64,000 nt of DNA, taken from assembly GCF_054482595.1 (NCBI RefSeq), contig NZ_CM137008.1; one strand, 5' to 3'. Shown here one piece after another: positions 3,578 to 30,360 of the stretch. Each line of letters begins with the position of its first letter. Within the stretch, counting starts at the first letter, position 1. Both the position numbers and the translations under genes were made by a program. Below the pieces are notes generated by a model, which saw only the letters and a list, made by a program, of their open reading frames with translations, did no database searches and was not told where the DNA came from.

Positions 3578-4714
3578 ATGGATCTATTGATTGTTTTAAC
3601 TTACGTGGCGCTGGCGTGGGCGGTCTTTAAAATCTTCCGCATTCCGGTAAATCAGTGGACGCTGGCGACGGCGGCGCTGGGAGGCGTGTTTCTGGTGAGT
3701 GGTTTGATTTTGTTGATGAACTACAACCACCCTTACACTTTTACCGCGCAAAAGGCAGTGATAGCGATCCCTATCACGCCACAGGTGACGGGAATTGTTA
3801 CTGAAGTCACTGACAAGAATAATCAGCTTATTCAAAAGGGCGAGGTGCTTTTTAAGCTCGACCCGGTTCGTTACCAGGCGCGAGTTGACAGACTTCAGGC
3901 TGACCTGATGACGGCGACGCATAATATAAAAACGCTGCGCGCCCAGCTCACTGAAGCGCAGGCCAACACCACCCAGGTTTCAGCGGAGCGCGACCGTCTG
4001 TTTAAAAATTATCAACGTTACCTGAAAGGCAGCCAGGCGGCGGTGAATCCGTTCTCGGAACGTGACATCGACGATGCGCGGCAAAATTTCCTCGCGCAGG
4101 ATGCGTTAGTGAAAGGCTCGGTGGCGGAGCAGGCGCAGATCCAGAGTCAGCTCGACAGTATGGTCAACGGCGAGCAATCGCAGATTGTGAGCTTAAGAGC
4201 GCAACTTACTGAAGCAAAATATAATCTTGAGCAGACTGTCATTCGCGCACCAAGCAATGGCTACGTCACTCAGGTACTGATCCGCCCAGGCACATACGCA
4301 GCTGCCTTGCCGTTGCGTCCGGTGATGGTTTTCATCCCCGAGCAAAAACGGCAAATTGTCGCCCAATTTCGGCAAAACTCGCTGTTACGTCTGAAACCTG
4401 GCGATGATGCGGAAGTGGTGTTTAACGCGCTACCTGGGCAGGTGTTCCACGGCAAACTGACCAGTATTTTACCTGTCGTGCCAGGCGGTTCTTATCAGGC
4501 GCAGGGGGTATTGCAATCATTAACGGTCGTGCCCGGCACGGACGGTGTGCTGGGAACCATTGAACTGGACCCTAACGATGATATCGATGCCTTACCCGAC
4601 GGCATTTACGCCCAGGTGGCAGTTTACTCCGACCATTTCAGCCATGTTTCGGTGATGCGAAAAGTGCTGCTAAGAATGACCAGCTGGATGCATTATCTTT
4701 ATTTGGATCATTGA
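3578..4714 (+). CDS. yibH: HlyD-family membrane-fusion-like protein
   Basis: 378-aa ORF with one N-terminal TM segment and long coiled-coil regions; SD ggaga before the ATG; paralogue of the yiaV-like ORF at 22120. Confidence 0.85.
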
Positions 4715-5173
4715 GGGGGAAGGGGGAGATTATGGAACTTTGCTCCCTGTAAGGACTAATTATTTTTGCATATTATTTCATCGGCTGTGATGATTTTTCG
4801 TTAATATCCATTATGTTAAGAAGTTCGGGATGAGTGTGAACTCATTGGATTTTTTATCCGTCTTGATCTGCCGAAGGATCAGACTATACATTGTCGAGAT
4901 CGCAATGATGATATGAGTTGTTCCTCCTGCGACGGCTCTAATCAAAAAAGAGCAGGAGTGCTTTTCCATCTATTGCGATGATGGCTTTATTATCTGAAGG
5001 ATGACAGTCACATTTAAAAAATATTTAATCTATAGATCACAATGTAGGGTCATGGAATATATGTATACAACTATTTTCTTCTTCACTTTTAATTATCGTG
5101 TTCATTATAAAACCAAGTTAAAAAAACTCCTGGAGAGTGACTTATTAATATATTTTTAAATAAAATTAAGTTA

Positions 5174-5695
5174 TTATTCATCGATGCATTTTATAGAATC
5201 ATCAATGGCCATAATAGTACTATTAACTCTCCACTTTATATTTTTATCATCACTACAAATATTAACTGAATTTATATCAATGATTTTTTTATTCTTATCT
5301 TTTGTTTTATTTACTGTTTCAATGCAATCAGCGGCAAGTTGGAGTGGATTTAGATTTTTCAGATATGGTCTTATGATCTTTCCCTTACTTAATAAATAGC
5401 ATGTATAGGATTCGGAAAGTCCAGCATCTATTTTGTACCTCATTATATTAGATAAGGATGTGAGAAATTCCTTGTTATCATTCGCAGCCATATATGCCAG
5501 TCCGAGTTCAGCCTCTGCGGCCTTACAGGCAAAATAGCTAAGTGAACACGCTTTTCGTCCCTCTTTAGTACTGGCTGATATTAGTGCCCATAATATTGCT
5601 TTGTCTGCCAAATCTAACTCTCTCTGAAATTGTCTTGCAGTAACTGCACTCGCAGAAATAGAGAAAAAAAATACAATTGTTAATAACTTTGCCAT
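5174..5695 (-). CDS. Putative secreted immunity protein for the adjacent orphan Rhs toxin tip (yibG-like by position)
   Basis: 173-aa ORF with a signal-peptide-like N-terminus (MAKLLTIVFFFSISASAVTA); AT-rich; directly downstream of the orphan Rhs C-terminal module. Confidence 0.55.
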   Translation of the reverse strand: MAKLLTIVFFFSISASAVTARQFQRELDLADKAILWALISASTKEGRKACSLSYFACKAAEAELGLAYMAANDNKEFLTSLSNIMRYKIDAGLSESYTCYLLSKGKIIRPYLKNLNPLQLAADCIETVNKTKDKNKKIIDINSVNICSDDKNIKWRVNSTIMAIDDSIKCIDE

Positions 5696-5700
5696 ATTTT

Positions 5701-6594
5701 TTAGTCCGTAACTGTTAATGTGCTATCTGGCTCTGAAAATATTAACTCATTTAATTTTTGCATGTCATTAGATGAACCAGTTATACAACCCTCGGAACAG
5801 AATCGAGGTCCTAAAGACGGACCGAAAGCGTTTAAACAACTATGTGTTAAAAATCCATCACGATTATATGTTTCTGTATTTGCTGACGGTACTAAACGTA
5901 TACCATTAGGTTTTCTATTGGTTGCTCCAGGACCATTAACATTCCAGCTCCATACCCCTTGAGGTATTGGACCTCTATTTTGTAAGTGTGTACAACCAGG
6001 ATTATTTTTACATTGCATATTATTACCATTATTACCAGAGGCGACAGGAATAGTAAGCACATCATAAGAGTTATCATCATTTTGCGTATCTGAAACGCAT
6101 GAAAGCATACTTAAAGTTATGCTGTATAAACAGGTCGCTAATCCCAACGGGTCAATATCAGTTATCGGATTCAACGGATACTGATAAAAATTCCATCCCC
6201 CTTTCAGCCCAATCGGATCCTGAGTGATATATCGCCCCTGCAGCGGGTCATAATAGCGGTGGCGGTTGTAATACAGGCCGGACTCCTCATCATACTGCTG
6301 CCCCGGCAGGCGGATAAGCTGCTGCAGCTGATGCGGGTTCTCTTCATTCAGCAGGTTGCCCCACTCATCGTATTCTGCGCACCATTCTGTAGCACCTTCC
6401 GTGCTGATAAGCGCCAGCGGCAGGCCGCGATGGTCGCAGTGGTACAGGTGGATTTTTCGCGCCGGCGTGTACACCGGGTCCATCTGGTTTTGCATCTGCG
6501 CCACCGTCAGGCCGCACGATGCCAGCCAGCGGCGGCTTTCCTCACTCACCCGGTCAGCCAGGATTTCACTTTCCAGCCGGTCGAGCATCTGCAC
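5701..6594 (-). CDS. Orphan Rhs C-terminal module: truncated core end (through DPxGL) plus variable toxin tip, no native start (yibJ-like by position)
   Basis: ORF contains ...[39 protein letters not shown] followed by a ~145-aa AT-rich tip; homology to the main rhs core stops abruptly near 6595. Confidence 0.75.
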
Positions 6595-6595
6595 C
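6165..6595 (-). repeat. Rhs 3' core repeat, copy 3 (partial)
   Basis: About 430 bp near-identical to 10330-10760 and 8462-8890 (e.g. ccaatcggatcctgagtgatata...gcgggtcataatagcggtggcggttgtaatacaggccggactcctcatcatactgctg). Confidence 0.9.
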
Positions 6596-6635
6596 GTGCC
6601 GGCGGGAATCCCCCACTGTGCATAGGCAACTCACG

Positions 6636-7478
6636 CTATGAACGCTTCAGCTTATCAATAGCGGAAGTTATAATTTCATTGTCATCAAACTTGTACAACA
6701 TAGTATCTAAAACAGGAAGTAGCGTTTTATCACCTAATTCACCCGCAGCTTCAATGATATCATCATAAACAGTATTTTTTTTTAACTCATCGCATAAAAC
6801 AGATAAAACCCTTTTATCTTTTCTGTAGGAAAGTCAGATTATTGCTTCAATACGGACTTCCTCATTTTTATCCTGAAGCATCTCCACAAAATAATCCCTA
6901 ATATCACTATTATCATATTTATTGATATTTATTGCAAATGCGGCCCAGTTTCTGACATCTCCATTTGGATCTTTTAACAGATTAATCAATAGTGGAATTG
7001 TTGCTTTATCATTGATAACAGAAATAGCAAATGCTGTAGCACGTCTGACATTAGTCGATTTATCAAAAGCAGTAATTTGAGATTGTTCTACTATTTTAGG
7101 TGAATAATTTGGGTTTTTCTTGCATCGCTGAGCCGTTGACTCGATTGCCGTAGCTCGAACGCAAGCGCTCTTATCATTCAATGCCATATTGTTCAAAATA
7201 TTAAAAACATTATCTTCGCATTTTTTGCAAATTTTTATTTGCCCGAGTATAAATGCTCCGATATCTCTACGGATATAATTTTTATCAGAGCAGAACTCAA
7301 TTGCCAATCTAACAGCGTCTTGCCCACCTCTTAACTGTAATACTCTGGCAGATGAAATCCTTTTCAAGGAATTGTGATCATCAAGTAAGCGAAATAATTC
7401 ATCATCATTTAGTTTCTTACATTGATTATATAAACCATACTCTTTACTTGCCTTTCTTTTCTGGTATGTATTTGACAT
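6636..7478 (-). pseudogene. yibA: HEAT-repeat protein YibA, interrupted by an in-frame TGA
   Basis: Translation from the MSNTYQKRKASKEYGLYNQCKK start reads to ...EVRIEAII then TGA (6834-6836); the same frame continues LSYRKDKRVLSVLCDELKKNTVYDD...DKLKRS to a TAG at 6636-6638. Confidence 0.7.
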
Positions 7479-7582
7479 TGCAGGAACCTCCACAAAGGCT
7501 ATCTTTTTTTATCGTTTGACTGTCTGGAGTCCTCCACCTACTCTGCCATCAGCGCACACGATGTTTGATTATCCTTACATAC

Positions 7583-7966
7583 TTATTTTCCGTGGCCAAA
7601 ATTCAGAATTCTCCCATCATTTTTGCCTATTTCTATAATAAAAACCCCACCAGCAATTTGGTCTGAGTGAATGGTACCTTCAACAACCCAACTTGTTGTT
7701 AACTCAGTGATTTCGTATGGTTTTTCTTCTTCTGCGGCATCCTGTCCATAACGATTCTTAACATATATCTCAGCTAATTCCAATGCTATAGCTTTATTTT
7801 TAACCAAATTTCTAACGGTATATTTACCTTCACTTTCATACTTGCGCATTATTTTAATATTATTATTACACTGCGCCCATGTGTTGTATGTAAAAACAAA
7901 CAAAGATACAATGACACATTTCCTAAACAATATTTTTTTACATATTACCATGAACTCTGCAGACAT
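7583..7966 (-). CDS. Putative immunity protein for orphan Rhs tip 1 (possibly a lipoprotein or secreted)
   Basis: 127-aa ORF, AT-rich, hydrophobic N-terminus ([24 protein letters not shown]); overlaps the 3' end of the orphan toxin ORF; true start may be the internal Met at 7951. Confidence 0.5.
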
Positions 7967-21277: not shown

Positions 21278-21360
21278 GCCTGATGCGACGCTTACGCGTC
21301 TTATCATGCCTACGGGGACCTGACCGTAGGCCGGATAAGGCGTACACGCCGCATCCGGCA
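21278..21360. repeat. REP/BIME element downstream of aldB
   Basis: gcctgatgcgacgcttacgcgtcttatcatgcctacgg and ccgtaggccggataaggcgtacacgccgcatccggc, inverted REP units. Confidence 0.8.
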
Positions 21361-25091: not shown

Positions 25092-25099
25092 TTCACCGG

Positions 25100-25228
25100 T
25101 GGATGTCGGTGCGGCTGGCCTACGCTCTCGCACCGACTTGTATGCCTGATAAGACGTGTTAAGCGTCGCATCAGGCAATGTGCTCCTTACGTTGGATGCG
25201 GCGCGAGTGCCTTATCCAACCTACGGAT
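25100..25228. repeat. REP/BIME element at the yiaT-proximal boundary of the GH127 module
   Basis: gcctgataagacgtgttaagcgtcgcatcaggc and ggatgcggcgcgagtgccttatccaacctacgg; the last unit overlaps the GH127 stop codon. Confidence 0.75.
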
Positions 25229-27191
25229 GGCAATGCTTTTCCTCATTCACCCAGATCCGCATTTCGCCTTCACCCCGGTTGGCCCAGCTAAACCACGGGA
25301 TAAAGGTCAGAGTTTGCGTCTGGCGTTTGGCTGGCGCGCTGTCGTAATGCCACAGCGGTTGCTGCTCTGGATTGCTCTGTTCATACCGGTAACCCGGTGC
25401 CTGGATTAAGATCTTATGGCTAAACAATCCATTGCCTTCAAATGTCGTAAATGGCGCATCGGTGGGCAGCCACAGATTATGCAGTGACTCGCCGTTGTCG
25501 GCCTGTTCCAGGCAATACACCAGCGGGCCGCGCTGAATCGCCACTTTTCCGGCGACGTGACGCACCAGCGGGTTACCGTAAACGCGACGTACTGGCATCG
25601 GCAAAGTCAGATTCAGCGTGTCGCCCTCCTGCCATTCGCGGGTAATGTGCAAATACCCTTTACGAATATCCTGCTCGACCTCTTCCCCATTCAATATGAT
25701 CTGCGGCTGTGTGCACCAGTCCGGCAGACGTAAAGCAAGTGTATGACGCACCGGCTGGGGCGATTCGACCGCAATCGTCACCTGTTCCTGCCACGGATAG
25801 TTCCCGCTAACCCGCAGGCGCAGCGTGCCATTTTCTACCGGCACTTCCATGCTGTTTCCTGCGTATATGTTGATATACAACGCATCTTCTCGCGGCGTGT
25901 AGAGATAATGACCAATCGAGGTCAGCACGCGGGCGATATTTGGCGGACAACAAGCGCAGCCAAACCAACGCTGGCGGATCGGTTTAACGTGATCGTAGAT
26001 ATGGTTGAATTTCAGCGATTTTGGATGTACTTCCAGCGGATTCACATAGAAGAAATGTTTGCCATCCAGCGCCATGCCGCCGAGCACGGTGTTGTACAGT
26101 GCGCGCTCCATCACATCGGCATATTGACTGTCGCCTTCCATTTCCAGCATTCGTCGGGCAAACATCATCAGGCCGATGGAGGCGCAACTTTCAGCGTATA
26201 CCGTGTCATTCGGCAGATCGTAATCGCTGCTGAACGCTTCACCGCTGCTCTGTGAGCCAATGCCGCCGGTAATATATAACTGACGCTGGGCCATATTGTT
26301 CCACAGCCGCAGGCAGTTCTGACGCTTGCTGTCATCGTGACTTAAACGCGCGAGATGCGCGACGCCGGTCATCAGATAGACAAAACGTACCGCGTGACCG
26401 ATGGCGGTTTGCTGTTGCGCAAGGGGCAAATGTGCCTGGCTGTAGGCTTTGTCTTTCACCATCCACGCCGGGCCGTAGGTGTGCCAGTGCGATGTCTGCC
26501 CGCGCTTTTCATATTCCTGGTCGTAATAGTGCGGTTGCGCACCACGTTGTTCGACAAAATAGTTCGTCAGTGCCAGGTAGCGCGGCTCTTCGGTCACTTC
26601 ATACAGACGCATCAGTGCCAGTTCAATTTCCGGGTGACCAGGGTAACCGTGTAACTTACTTTCATCTGGACCAAACACGCTGTCGATATGATCGGCCAGA
26701 CGGCAAACCACTTCCAGCAAGCGCCGCTTGCCCGTGGCCTGGAAGAAGGCGACTCCAGCTTCAATCAGATGACCTGCGCAGTAAAGTTCATGACACTCCG
26801 CCAGATTGCTCCAGCGTTCTTCGGGTGCTTTTACCGTAAAGTAAGTATTGAGATAGCCGTCTTCGCATTGGGCGGAGGCGATCAGTTCGATTACCTCGTC
26901 GGCGGTTTTTTCCAGTTCGGCGTCTGGCTTCTGGCACAGCGACCAGGCTACCGCTTCCAGCCATTTGGCGACATCGCTGTCCTGAAACACCATCCCGTAA
27001 AATTCACCCTCCTGAAGTCCGGCGGCAATGCGAAAGTTTTCAATCGCATGGCTGGGTTCCGCTTCTGGTATACGATCGTTCAAGGCATCCCACTGATAAG
27101 GAATCACCACGTCGCGGACCAGTTGTTGGTACTGACCGAGAAACGGATCGCTGACCGTCAGTTTATGCAGATCGACTTCCGAAATGTTCAT
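25221..27191 (-). CDS. Glycoside hydrolase family 127-like protein (DUF1680; putative beta-L-arabinofuranosidase), cytoplasmic
   Basis: Start taken at MNISEVDL after SD aaggag (656 aa); contains YAESCASIG and WFGCACCPPN, matching the Glu-x-Cys and Cys-x-Cys-Cys zinc/nucleophile signature of GH127 enzymes; no signal peptide. Confidence 0.75.
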   Translation of the reverse strand: MNISEVDLHKLTVSDPFLGQYQQLVRDVVIPYQWDALNDRIPEAEPSHAIENFRIAAGLQEGEFYGMVFQDSDVAKWLEAVAWSLCQKPDAELEKTADEVIELIASAQCEDGYLNTYFTVKAPEERWSNLAECHELYCAGHLIEAGVAFFQATGKRRLLEVVCRLADHIDSVFGPDESKLHGYPGHPEIELALMRLYEVTEEPRYLALTNYFVEQRGAQPHYYDQEYEKRGQTSHWHTYGPAWMVKDKAYSQAHLPLAQQQTAIGHAVRFVYLMTGVAHLARLSHDDSKRQNCLRLWNNMAQRQLYITGGIGSQSSGEAFSSDYDLPNDTVYAESCASIGLMMFARRMLEMEGDSQYADVMERALYNTVLGGMALDGKHFFYVNPLEVHPKSLKFNHIYDHVKPIRQRWFGCACCPPNIARVLTSIGHYLYTPREDALYINIYAGNSMEVPVENGTLRLRVSGNYPWQEQVTIAVESPQPVRHTLALRLPDWCTQPQIILNGEEVEQDIRKGYLHITREWQEGDTLNLTLPMPVRRVYGNPLVRHVAGKVAIQRGPLVYCLEQADNGESLHNLWLPTDAPFTTFEGNGLFSHKILIQAPGYRYEQSNPEQQPLWHYDSAPAKRQTQTLTFIPWFSWANRGEGEMRIWVNEEKHCHP

Positions 27192-27201
27192 CTTGTGCTC
27201 C

Positions 27202-28602
27202 TTAAGGCTGTACATGACGCTGACGCAGGTCGGTAGCAATGCGTGACATCATAGGGTTATTGAGTTTGCAAAAGCGGATCGCCCCTGCCAGCAGCAGGTG
27301 GAATAGCGCAGGCAGTAATGTTTCCATCGCCGTGATCCCGCCAAGCGAACTGGTGGTCTGGTTTTCCACGCCTGGCTGGTAGGCGACAAAAATAAACAGC
27401 AGGCTGATGATCCCGGCGCTGGAGGCCCAGGCCAGCTTGATGAAAAACAGATTGAAGGCGAAGTTCATGCCGGAAGAACGTACGCGGGTTTTCCACTCGC
27501 CGTAGTCATCGGCAAAGGCCATCAATGAGAAGTGCAGTGGCAATGTGAAGCCAAGAATCACGCCATTACCGAGGATCACCGCCAGCCACAGCGTTTGATA
27601 AGCCGGGCCGGAGGGCAGGAACCACATCAACACCGCCAGTGCAGCGAGGAGCAGGTTGGTGTAGTAATAAATTTTGACGGTATCGAAACGCCGCGTTAAC
27701 GGGCTGACAATCACCGAGCCGATAATGGAGGCGAAGGTGACCATGGTGAAGAACAGCGACGTGTAGCCCGTGCTGCCTTGTAAGACGTAGGTAATGAAGT
27801 ACATATACCCACCGCCGCGAATATTAAAGACGTTAATCAGCAGGAAAGACATGACCAGCATCAGCAGCAGTTGGTCGTTGTTCCGCAGCCCGGCAAGATG
27901 TTCGCGCAGGGTAAATTTCCCCATTGTGGAGAGTGGCACCCGTTCACGAACCCAGAAAAAACAGCACAGGAACATCACCACGGCAATGGCGCACAGCACG
28001 CCGACGCCCAATTGATAGCCGCGCGCGGCATTACCCTGACCGAAGAGATCTACCATCCACGGTAAGCCTACCGAAACCAGAAATCCCGCTACGCCACAGA
28101 GAACGAATCGCCAGGACTGGCAGGAGATCACTTCATTGTGGCGGGTGGTCATGGTGTTGATCAGCGCGCAGTACGGTACGTTGATGGCGGTATAACCGAC
28201 TGAAAGGAGCAGGTAAGTACCGAACGCCCAGGCGATTTTTACTCCCATGCTGGCATCTGGCACGGTGAACGTCAGGATGCCGATAATGCCGATGGGAATG
28301 GCAATCCATAGCTGCCACGGACGAAAGCGCCCCCAGCGACTTTGCGTCCGGTCGGCAATGACGCCCATCACCGGGTCGGAGATGGCATCAAACACGCGCA
28401 GTGCAATAAACAGCGTGCCAACCAGCGCCGGAGTTAATCCAAAAACGTCGGTGTAGAAAAAGGTGAGAAAGTTCATGATCAGGCAAGTTATTACGGTGCC
28501 GCCTGCGTCACCCAGGCCGTAGCCTATTTTTTCCCGTACCGATAACGCATCGTCAATTTTACCTTTAGCGATATCAGCGGTAGTAATCGGTGTAGAGGTC
28601 AT
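27202..28602 (-). CDS. GPH-family glycoside/pentoside/hexuronide:cation symporter (MelB-like)
   Basis: 466-aa polytopic [38 protein letters not shown]...[13 protein letters not shown] (GPH signature region); SD gagga; stop lies 10 nt before the GH127 start, so operon-like. Confidence 0.8.
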
Positions 28603-28740
28603 AGATATTCCTCGTGAATAGGGAGCAATTTTTAGTTTTATTGAAATGACCTGATTAATTCTGCCGTGAACGGGAATATCAACAAGGCGAGAAAAGAGTA
28701 AAAAAAGGTGACGATTCCGACCTGAATTTAAAAGTGTGAA

Positions 28741-29643
28741 ATGGATCAGGTGAAATTAATGTTTTTTATTAATAATCAAAAGGTAATGTGTTTTGTCATT
28801 AATGAAGAAGCGGGAAATTACATATCAATGCTCGAATTATCCATGACGTTACCGATTAAAGTGCAAAATGGTGGATTATTTATTTCCCGTGGCGTAGGGA
28901 GGCATCCTGCAAGGCGGCTGGAGTCATGGGAAATTATCTTTGTCGAAAAAGGTCGATTAACGATTCAGGAAGAAGAACGGATATTTCTGGTCGATGCGGG
29001 AGAGAGTTTATTACTCTGGCCGAACCGACAACATGTTGGGGTGGAGGATTTTCCCGCCGATCTCAAATTTTACTGGCTGCATTTTGAGGTTAAAGCGCCG
29101 GACAACGACCCTCGCTGGCTTACTCATCTTAGCGTGCCGCAACAAACGAAGGTTGTCGATCCGCAGGCGCTGGTGGCCCTGTTTCGCCAGTTCTTAAGCG
29201 AACAGGAAAAGCATCAACGCACTCCGGCGCTGGAGTTTATTGTGCTGCTCATTTTGCAGCAGCTCACCCGTGACGCGCGTCTTGATGAACAGGCCGATGG
29301 CGCAGGCACCACCCTTGCCTGGAAAGCGCAGAAACTGATCCGCACGCAATATCATCGCCCGCTTTCTACGGTGCTTCTGGCCCGCGAGCTGTACTGCAAT
29401 GCCGATTATCTTGGGCGCGTCTACCGGCGGGTGTTTCATCTGACGTTAACAGAAGCAATCCATCGCCAGCGGGTGCGCGAAGCCGAAAAGCTGTTAATTA
29501 GCGAAGCGCGATCGCTCACGGAAGTGGCGGCGTTGTGCGGGTTTAATGACGTTGGCTATTTCCGGCAGATTTTTCGCAAACACACCGGTTTAACGCCAGC
29601 AGCGTGGAAGCGGCGTTACAGCAAGGAACATATCAATTCGTAG
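28741..29643 (+). CDS. AraC/XylS-family transcriptional regulator (N-terminal cupin-like sensing domain, C-terminal HTH)
   Basis: 300-aa ORF divergent from the transporter gene; C-terminal region with the typical AraC HTH; start codon uncertain (ATG 28741 or a downstream Met near 28819). Confidence 0.75.
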
Positions 29644-29886
29644 TGCCGTGTCGATTTCGCTTTCGACATCACGTCTGAAACAGGTGGGGGAGAAAAATCT
29701 CCTGAAACCACTGCGTGAAACCGCGCAGGCTATTTCTAATGAACTGGGATTTACTGTCAGGGATGACCTTGGCGCGATCACATAACGCTTTGGACAAGTG
29801 CCAAAACTTTAACATTTCCTTCGTTGGATCAAAGCAGTAGGGACGTGCTCTCTGGCACTCTGCTGTTTTAGTGCAAAGGAGTGATC

Positions 29887-30360
29887 ATGAACCGGTTTAT
29901 TATTGCGGATGCGACGAAATGTATCGGTTGCCGTACCTGTGAAGTGGCTTGCGCAGTGTCGCATCAGGAGAATCAGGATTGCGCTGCGTTGTCACCAGAC
30001 GAGTTTATTTCCCGTATTCGTGTTATTAAAGACCACAGCTGGACCACGGCAGTAGCCTGTCATCAGTGTGAAGATGCACCGTGCGCGAATGTCTGCCCTG
30101 TTGACGCGATAAGCCGCGAACATGGGCATATTTTCGTTGAACAATCACGTTGCATTGGCTGTAAAAGCTGTATGCTGGCTTGCCCGTTTGGTGCGATGGA
30201 GGTCGTTTCTTCGCGCAAAAAGGCGAGGGCGATTAAGTGCGATCTGTGCTGGCATCGGGCGACGGGACCGGCCTGTGTTGAAGCCTGCCCGACAAAGGCG
30301 TTGCAGTGCATGGATGTCGAGAAAGTGCAGCGGCATCGGCTACGGCAGCAGCCTGTTTGA
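29887..30360 (+). CDS. ysaA: 4Fe-4S ferredoxin-type protein
   Basis: 157-aa ORF from ATG 29887 after SD aaggag; several CxxCxxCxxxCP motifs (CIGCRTCEVAC, CHQCEDAPCANVCP, CIGCKSCMLACP). Confidence 0.9.
   Translation: MNRFIIADATKCIGCRTCEVACAVSHQENQDCAALSPDEFISRIRVIKDHSWTTAVACHQCEDAPCANVCPVDAISREHGHIFVEQSRCIGCKSCMLACPFGAMEVVSSRKKARAIKCDLCWHRATGPACVEACPTKALQCMDVEKVQRHRLRQQPV

Follow-up and report, generated by a model that had tools for sequence, protein, structure and literature searches.

The three genes analyzed here lie between yiaT and ysaA in a 64,000-nucleotide stretch of DNA from RefSeq assembly GCF_054482595.1 (contig NZ_CM137008.1). This whole stretch, hereafter the window, is 100% identical to the chromosome of Escherichia coli XH990 (NZ_CP019359). 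The genes encode a hydrolase of glycoside hydrolase family 127 (GH127), a GPH:cation symporter, and a divergently transcribed AraC/XylS-family regulator, and they are referred to together as the module. An earlier reading of the same DNA (the original prediction) had described the module as a beta-L-arabinofuranoside utilization system that replaced the yia-sgb cluster of E. coli K-12. The three open reading frames (ORFs) that it claimed are all present and full length. The genes and the ribosome-binding sequence at the junction of the two minus-strand genes are listed below.

25221–27191, minus strand: GH127 hydrolase gene, 656 amino acids from its ATG in the ORF list
27202–28602, minus strand: GPH:cation symporter gene, 466 amino acids, first gene of the operon
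28828–29643, plus strand: AraC/XylS-family regulator gene, 271 amino acids, placed by the RefSeq start and the conserved start
27198–27203, minus strand: Shine-Dalgarno sequence AAGGAG of the hydrolase gene, overlapping the symporter TAA stop (27202–27204), read directly

The junction between symporter and hydrolase reads ...CCT TAA GGAGCACAAG ATG, with a stop-to-start gap of 10 nucleotides (nt). As originally described, the symporter stop falls within the AAGGAG element 10 nt before the hydrolase ATG, and this junction sequence supports the operon-like coupling proposed for the two genes: they form one operon and are translationally close-coupled.

For the regulator, the strand and stop given previously hold, and the start does not. 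The longest ORF runs from 28741 to 29643 on the plus strand; its extension 5' of 28828 is not conserved. In an alignment of 16 genera, conservation starts exactly at the MLELS codons, and 5' of that point the sequences diverge and carry non-triplet indels. Because this boundary coincides with the RefSeq start, the true start is almost certainly the ATG at 28828, not that at 28741. An exact-sequence look-up in a protein collection placed the 271-residue regulator sequence on 700 contigs, and the same look-up returned no exact match for this strain's hydrolase and symporter alleles.

Family assignment of the three proteins

All three GH127 Pfam domains match the hydrolase (PF07944, 1e-112, residues 12–427; PF20736, 1.3e-23; PF20737, 3.1e-25), which is the DUF1680/GH127 result that had been expected of a profile search. 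The protein has the catalytic (alpha/alpha)6 domain of the family together with its middle and C-terminal beta domains, and by these matches it is a firm member of GH127. Its best match in the PDB is Ara127N (4qjy; 782 bits, residues 11–650, 54.9% identity), and it aligns over its full length with HypBA1 of Bifidobacterium longum (3wkw; 509 bits). Other GH127 structures score 387 (6ex6) and 323 bits (5mqo), so that by bit score the hydrolase is closer to characterized beta-L-arabinofuranosidases than to GH127 members of other activity. The only NCBIfam match is to an aceric acid hydrolase equivalog (458 bits vs. a cut-off of 950).

HypBA1 uses Glu322 as acid/base and Cys417 as nucleophile, and has a (Cys)3-Glu zinc site (PMC8106489). 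Glu322 and Cys417 align with E318 and C414 of the hydrolase, which contains the motifs YAESCASIG and WFGCACCPPN as had been claimed. The zinc ligands of HypBA1, which we take to be E338, C340, C417, and C418 in keeping with the 3wkw sequence, map in the same alignment to E334, C336, C414, and C415 as the putative ligands of the hydrolase. The alignment thus confirms the positions of both the catalytic Glu/Cys pair and the Glu/Cys3 site of the original prediction. HypBA1 His142, His194, and His270, presumably residues of the -1 subsite (the numbers do fall on His in 3wkw), also align with His in the hydrolase. The catalytic and zinc motifs are retained in 80 of 80 orthologous loci.

The predicted location of the hydrolase within the cell follows from its N-terminus. 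On inspection this sequence (MNISEVDLHKLTVSDPFLGQ) is acidic and hydrophilic, with no hydrophobic leader. The alignment starts at residue 11, opposite residue 16 in Ara127N and residue 3 in HypBA1, which leaves no signal-peptide extension, and the hydrolase would therefore be cytoplasmic; the earlier claim that it has no signal peptide agrees with this. Taken together with the structural matches, we predict a beta-L-arabinofuranosidase (EC 3.2.1.185).

The symporter scores above the cut-off of the curated GPH model TIGR00792 (331.7 vs. 231.35 bits, covering model positions 1–437 of 437) and matches Pfam MFS_2 (6.8e-73), in accord with its first assignment. It scores 206 bits against the MelB model, and no characterized equivalog exceeded its cut-off in the NCBIfam model search. 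A 10-residue segment aligns to helix II of Salmonella MelB (4m64; ARIWDAINDP). In MelB, Arg52, Asp55, and Asp59 belong to the cation site, and Asp19 and Asp124 bind the galactoside. The equivalents of the former three are conserved as R69, D72, and D76; Asp19 and Asp124 are not, being T36 and N141 in the symporter. Since the cation-site residues are kept and the galactoside residues changed, the pattern fits cation coupling with a sugar other than that of MelB.

The regulator consists of a C-terminal double helix-turn-helix (HTH) and an N-terminal AraC-type cupin ligand-binding domain (HTH_18, 4.9e-19, 213–292; AraC_binding, 1.7e-9, 55–161), which places it in the AraC family as proposed. It reaches no NCBIfam equivalog cut-off (AraC, 59 bits vs. 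208; MelR, 37.5 vs. 253), and is therefore not AraC, MelR, or RhaS/R themselves.

Regulatory DNA and flanking elements

The space between the divergent genes contains several blocks that are conserved in the 16-genus alignment. They are listed here with the basis of each assignment.

28603–28827, no strand: divergent regulatory region, 225 bp, with blocks conserved across 16 genera
28658–28685, minus strand: putative activator-dependent sigma-70 promoter of the operon, from conservation and spacing
28686–28721, minus strand: conserved block GTCGGAAT...TTTTTnTAC...CTTGTTG, upstream of and overlapping the -35, from the alignment
28735–28750, no strand: CRP-like site (TGTGAAATGGATCAGG on the plus strand), with GATC-N4-TCACA invariant across genera
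28771–28776, plus strand: candidate -10 of the regulator promoter (AATAAT), conserved, 52 nt before the ATG at 28828

The operon promoter is composed of a -35 hexamer TTGTTG (28680–28685), a 16-nt spacer, and a -10 hexamer CAGAAT (28658–28663), and both hexamers are invariant or nearly so across genera. Transcription is predicted to start near 28650, with a weak -35. The block at 28686–28721, whose CTTGTTG reaches 28680, includes a C(A/G)CCTT(T/G)TT-like direct repeat with 21-bp spacing, and is a probable candidate for the region bound by the regulator. The CRP-like site has one perfect half-site and is centered at approximately -92.5 from the predicted start.

Read towards the symporter, the block at 28771–28776 is ATTATT. 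A scan match on the minus strand at 28799–28772 (-10 GATTAT) was rejected as the operon promoter, as its paired -35 is not conserved. Elsewhere in the window, four near-perfect CRP palindromes (0–1 mismatch to TGTGA-N6-TCACA) occur within approximately 180 bp at 2820–2996; we assume that these may be the multi-CRP promoter region of mtlA.

The REP (repetitive extragenic palindromic) elements that had been noted on the yiaT side of the module correspond to two palindromes, both located in the interval from the stop of yiaT to that of the hydrolase.

25143–25177, no strand: REP-type palindrome (TGCCTGATAAGACG / CGTCGCATCAGGCA) 3' of the operon, from an inverted-repeat search
25188–25223, no strand: second, oppositely oriented REP-type palindrome, overlapping the hydrolase TAG stop at its end

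The first resembles a canonical REP found at 21278–21313, and the second probably acts as a 3' mRNA stabilizer or terminator. Both were detected by the inverted-repeat search; the full REP consensus pattern missed them because their loop length differs. A separate perfect 9-bp stem with a 15-nt loop (GTCGGTGCG / CGCACCGAC; 25105–25137) lies just past the yiaT stop, and the endpoint of the K-12 deletion (after window position 25118) is inside it. On the other flank, the ysaA ORF could begin at a GTG at 29881; the RefSeq start is the ATG at 29887.

Distribution and history of the locus

A scan across species, in which each species was represented by one genome, returned 80 loci. The hydrolase is 76–96% identical across Escherichia, Citrobacter, Klebsiella, Raoultella, Enterobacter, Kluyvera, Kosakonia, and Phytobacter, and the same range holds for Leclercia, Lelliottia, Buttiauxella, Salmonella diarizonae, Pantoea, Mixta, Hafnia, and others. 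In approximately 70 of the 80 loci the symporter is immediately upstream of the hydrolase in the same orientation, with the regulator divergent upstream of the symporter. Orthologues of yiaT and/or ysaA flank the module in many genera, and sgbE adjoins the regulator in 26 loci, including those of Klebsiella, Citrobacter, Enterobacter, Salmonella diarizonae, and Raoultella, which indicates that the arrangement with both clusters is ancestral. At other loci the neighbors are unrelated housekeeping genes, and such flanks show that the three genes make up a unit of their own. The module, whose order and orientation hold in approximately 70 species of Enterobacterales, is an old, widespread, and vertically inherited enterobacterial unit.

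Two further occurrences depart from this pattern. Enterobacteriaceae bacterium MGYG-HGUT-00110, a gut enterobacterium whose genome also contains the canonical module, has a diverged paralogous symporter-hydrolase pair (approximately 70% identity; locus positions 4572–7956) that is flanked by ubiX and purF and is accompanied by a regulator of the LacI type. This pair lends independent support to the coupling of transporter and enzyme. Several Bradyrhizobium species encode a hydrolase that is 71–72% identical, without symporter or regulator, which suggests that the enzyme gene alone moved horizontally between classes. The genes next to the loci of Pantoea, Klebsiella, and Bradyrhizobium, and those around the paralogous pair, offered nothing further on the substrate. 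A contig assigned to "Chryseobacterium sp. 18061" contains the module with the same identities and coordinates as Citrobacter sp. 18056 from the same project, and the record is probably mislabelled or contaminated.

Within E. coli we surveyed 5,426 complete genomes, counting as a carrier any genome with at least 80% of the module and assigning haplotypes with junction-specific probes. The module is present in 2,311 of them (approximately 43%), always on the chromosome. The haplotypes are as follows.

1,893 genomes: sgbE joined to the 3' end of the regulator gene, so that the module and the complete yiaJ-sgbE cluster are adjacent (e.g., ST131, GN06098)
426 genomes: the regulator/yiaJ-remnant junction of the window, including O157:H7-type strains
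2,462 genomes: the K-12 scar
approximately 645 genomes, by subtraction: other arrangements (e.g., Nissle 1917)

Between ysaA and yiaT, K-12 has yiaJ-yiaKLMNO-lyxK-sgbHUE. The original prediction was right that this cluster is gone from the window, and it overlooked a 141-bp remnant of the yiaJ 3' end. The remnant and the junction that created it are placed as follows.

29645–29785, plus strand: yiaJ (IclR-family repressor) pseudogene remnant, last 49 codons, a RefSeq pseudogene
29644–29649, no strand: deletion junction with 4-nt microhomology GCCG, from comparison with the both-cluster genome GN06098

The remnant, between the regulator and ysaA, aligns by tblastn with YiaJ residues 234–282 at 94% identity. 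Compared with the both-cluster genome, the window is missing approximately 9.9 kb, from sgbE through yiaK plus yiaJ codons 1–233, and the deletion begins 6 nt past the regulator stop. In Escherichia sp. E1V33, a YiaJ C-terminal remnant likewise lies between the regulator and ysaA.

K-12 retains the converse traces. Its pseudogenes ysaC (b4648) and ysaD (b4649), between sgbE and yiaT, are remnants of the module: ysaC (102 bp) corresponds to the regulator 3' end (window 29540–29655) and ysaD (192 bp) to a hydrolase fragment (window 25329–25518). They form a non-functional scar that implies deletions of approximately 4.0 and 0.2 kb. In MG1655, the ysaD fragment is 89% identical to the window hydrolase gene, with the adjacent yiaT flank at 98% (locus positions 4814–5110); the low identity of ysaD reflects either an old, drifting scar or origin from a divergent allele.

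Gene order across these genomes indicates the ancestral arrangement yiaT - [hydrolase-symporter / regulator] - [sgbE...yiaK / yiaJ] - ysaA. Because 1,893 genomes carry both clusters side by side, and because remnants persist in K-12 and in the window, the comparison shows neighbors that were lost reciprocally in different lineages, not alternative cassettes. By the same evidence, the lineage of the window lost yia-sgb by the approximately 9.9-kb microhomology deletion, and K-12 lost the GH127 module instead. Other losses differ in extent. Nissle 1917 represents a fourth haplotype, in which aldB directly adjoins sgbE; both yiaWVUT and the entire GH127 module have been removed cleanly, and no trace of the AraC-type gene is left. 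The bloodstream isolate GN06098 has no yiaW-yiaV-yiaU-yiaT, so that aldB adjoins the hydrolase gene; it also has two further genes, one of the Fic family separating yiaY from aldB and one for a DUF4862 protein, absent in K-12, between yiaL and yiaM.

Predicted function and known systems

The reading that we consider likely is that the module takes up a small beta-L-arabinofuranoside, hydrolyzes it in the cytoplasm to L-arabinose, and is controlled by its AraC-type activator, probably together with CRP. By its family, the GPH symporter would import the glycoside, which would most plausibly be beta-L-Araf-(1,2)-L-Ara (beta-Ara2) or a similar short glycoside that other microbes free from plant hydroxyproline-rich glycoproteins, arabinan, or arabinogalactan. 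The GH127 cysteine glycosidase would then cleave it to L-arabinose, and this would enter the araBAD pathway. The divergent activator would drive the operon, probably with CRP bound approximately 92 bp upstream, and the substrate or product would induce the operon through the regulator under catabolite control. Bifidobacterium releases beta-Ara2 from hydroxyproline-rich glycoproteins by the GH121 enzyme HypBA2 (PMC8106489). That beta-Ara2-type substrates specifically are the ones used is a tentative assignment, which we would put at somewhat under even chances. We hold with similar reserve the broader view of the module as an ancestral, Enterobacteriaceae-wide scavenger of beta-L-arabinofuranosyl disaccharides, such as beta-Ara2 made available from dietary extensins by Bifidobacterium or Bacteroides.

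Several observations weigh against the reading of beta-L-arabinofuranoside uptake and cleavage. E. coli has no obvious secreted enzyme that would free such glycosides, so it would be a scavenger and the substrate source is conjecture. The searchable literature yielded no enzymology, transport, regulation, expression, or growth study of any enterobacterial copy. GH127 includes activities other than arabinofuranosidase, the aceric acid hydrolase model does match at 458 bits, and a GH127 enzyme is implicated in carrageenan catabolism by a paper that refers to the family heavily; with more than one activity in the family, membership alone does not fix the substrate. The GH127 gene is annotated as frameshifted in GN06098 and most A/B1-type genomes have lost the module, which is therefore dispensable. 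On the regulatory side, the operon promoter, CRP site, and activator site were inferred from conservation. The CRP motif by itself is not above chance (36 found vs. 26 expected), and only its conservation across genera led us to keep the CRP-like site. A generic promoter/terminator scan gave fewer promoter matches than in shuffled sequence and missed the conserved operon promoter, for which reason the assignment of 28658–28685 is kept as putative.

Three other explanations were considered. The architecture may have been read correctly and the substrate be a furanoside of another kind, or a small-molecule glycoside of plant or microbial origin, that feeds a different pathway. The range of specificities in GH127, including the carrageenan case and the aceric acid hydrolase model that is the sole NCBIfam match, would allow this, as would a symporter whose sugar contacts differ from those of MelB and which has no characterized equivalog above cut-off; nor does any neighboring gene link the module to arabinose. 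We nevertheless regard another substrate as unlikely, since the hydrolase scores 782 and 509 bits against two beta-L-arabinofuranosidase structures (vs. 387 and 323 for other GH127 structures), shares 55% identity over its full length with Ara127N, and matches HypBA1 at every catalytic and zinc position as well as at the three His of the -1 subsite. In addition, the score against the aceric acid hydrolase model does not reach half of its curated cut-off. It is much less probable still, to the point of being very hard to credit, that the module is a decaying relic without current function in this strain. The GN06098 frameshift points that way, as does loss or scarring in the majority of complete E. 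coli genomes; against this, all three ORFs are full length in the window, the catalytic residues are intact, and the genes are 98% identical to O157-type copies. Moreover, orthologues (78–87% protein identity) are intact in approximately 70 species and the regulatory DNA is conserved as well, which indicates purifying selection.

The remaining explanation is the locus history of the original prediction, in which homologous recombination put the module, as an alternative cassette, in place of yiaJ-sgbE between ysaA and yiaT; horizontal acquisition was considered here as another route. It was suggested by the module filling the interval where K-12 has yia-sgb, and by REP elements without mobility genes; as had been stated, the RefSeq annotation has no mobility gene near the module. 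The deletion haplotype, found in O157:H7-type strains, XH990, and an Escherichia cryptic-clade genome, could also have spread by flanking recombination. The synteny comparison proposed as a check did not reveal a replacement slot, however: module and full yia-sgb stand side by side in 1,893 genomes, and the same adjacency recurs in 26 loci of other species. The ysaC and ysaD remnants in K-12, the yiaJ remnant in the window, and the GCCG microhomology, which is typical of illegitimate deletion, contradict replacement as well. The GC content of the module is unremarkable (0.53–0.56, like the flanks), and alternative occupancy, atypical GC, mobility genes, and an insertion signature, by which a genomic island or replacement cassette would be recognized, were not found. 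We consider replacement extremely improbable, and retain the reading of an inherited beta-L-arabinofuranoside module whose neighbor was deleted.

The original prediction also held that this capability had not been described for E. coli, which is true in part. In RefSeq, each of the listed records that carry the module already names this gene "glycoside hydrolase family 127 protein", and two pangenome studies of inflammatory bowel disease (IBD) have touched on it with the same inferred function. A 2021 preprint, an IBD pangenome survey, reported that in E. coli GH127 is a non-core CAZy family whose occurrence depends on the clade, and in Kim et al. (2024) it is among the genes that co-segregate with epithelial invasion in IBD isolates, with cleavage of beta-Ara2 inferred by homology. 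No biochemical or physiological study was found in the searchable literature; literature on GH127/DUF1680 in E. coli, O157, and Enterobacteriaceae was limited to pangenome mentions and CAZy count tables. In strain Sakai, ECs4456 is yiaI/ysaA and the module should therefore be ECs4457–4459; a literature search with these tags and with Z5001–Z5003 returned nothing relevant. Z5000 of EDL933, a "putative regulatory protein", shows 48-fold RpoS dependence in stationary phase (PMC2907692). By position Z5000 may be the module regulator, a mapping that could not be confirmed and was not used.

The module is already annotated and its K-12 remnants already named. If the predicted function is correct, a substantial share of natural and pathogenic E. 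coli (O157:H7 and ST131 among others), together with most enteric genera, would use plant-glycan carbon that K-12 cannot, and there would be a cross-feeding link from primary degraders such as Bifidobacterium to Enterobacteriaceae. Substrates would be assigned to an uncharacterized GPH transporter and AraC-family sensor, and ysaC and ysaD would be explained. Were the broader view of an ancestral disaccharide scavenger to prove true, the module would supply the first examples of a GPH transporter and of an AraC-type sensor with specificity for beta-L-arabinofuranosides, and presence (B2, D/E, O157, ST131-type) vs. loss (K-12, A/B1-type, Nissle) of the module would be a niche determinant in the gut or on plants. 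The locus also illustrates reciprocal gene loss cleanly: of two neighboring sugar clusters, some lineages have deleted one and some the other. We regard all this as a modest advance that introduces no new principle.

Among characterized enzymes, Ara127N of Geobacillus stearothermophilus T6 (4QJY/4QK0) resembles the hydrolase in its three-domain layout, Glu/Cys pair, Cys3-Glu motif, and lack of a signal peptide. The Ara127N gene belongs to a large L-arabinan cluster with ABC importers and several other arabinosidases, whereas the only partners of the hydrolase described here are a GPH symporter and a regulator of the AraC type. In the HypBA system of B. longum, a cytoplasmic GH127 enzyme cleaves an imported beta-L-arabinofuranoside, as is predicted for the module, and Glu322, Cys417, and the zinc ligands align. 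That system includes HypBA2 (GH121) and an ABC importer; the module has a GPH symporter and no GH121 or other secreted partner, and would be confined to ready-made small glycosides. The hydrolase is also less similar to HypBA1 (509 bits) than to Ara127N. The interval from yiaT to the yiaJ remnant contains no genes but the three of the module, and neither a secreted GH121 nor an ABC importer is among them.

In layout the module is like melR-melAB of E. coli, where a divergent AraC-family regulator likewise faces a two-gene operon that encodes a GPH symporter along with a glycosidase. MelB is a homologue of the symporter described here, and co-activation of the module by CRP is plausible. Unlike melAB, however, the module has its transporter gene first and a GH127 enzyme instead of GH4, and the sugar-binding residues of MelB are not conserved; its regulator resembles MelR only through the shared HTH (37.5 bits vs. 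the cut-off of 253). The predicted regulatory layout is also similar to that of araC-araBAD. There, CRP is centered at -93.5 with AraC I1-I2 downstream. In the module, the CRP-like site at approximately -92.5 is followed by a conserved block of approximately 40 bp that extends to the -35 and could hold two half-sites spaced by 21 bp (cf. AraC I1-I2). The module therefore resembles the last step of the HypBA system combined with the melR-melAB layout, yet it belongs to neither.

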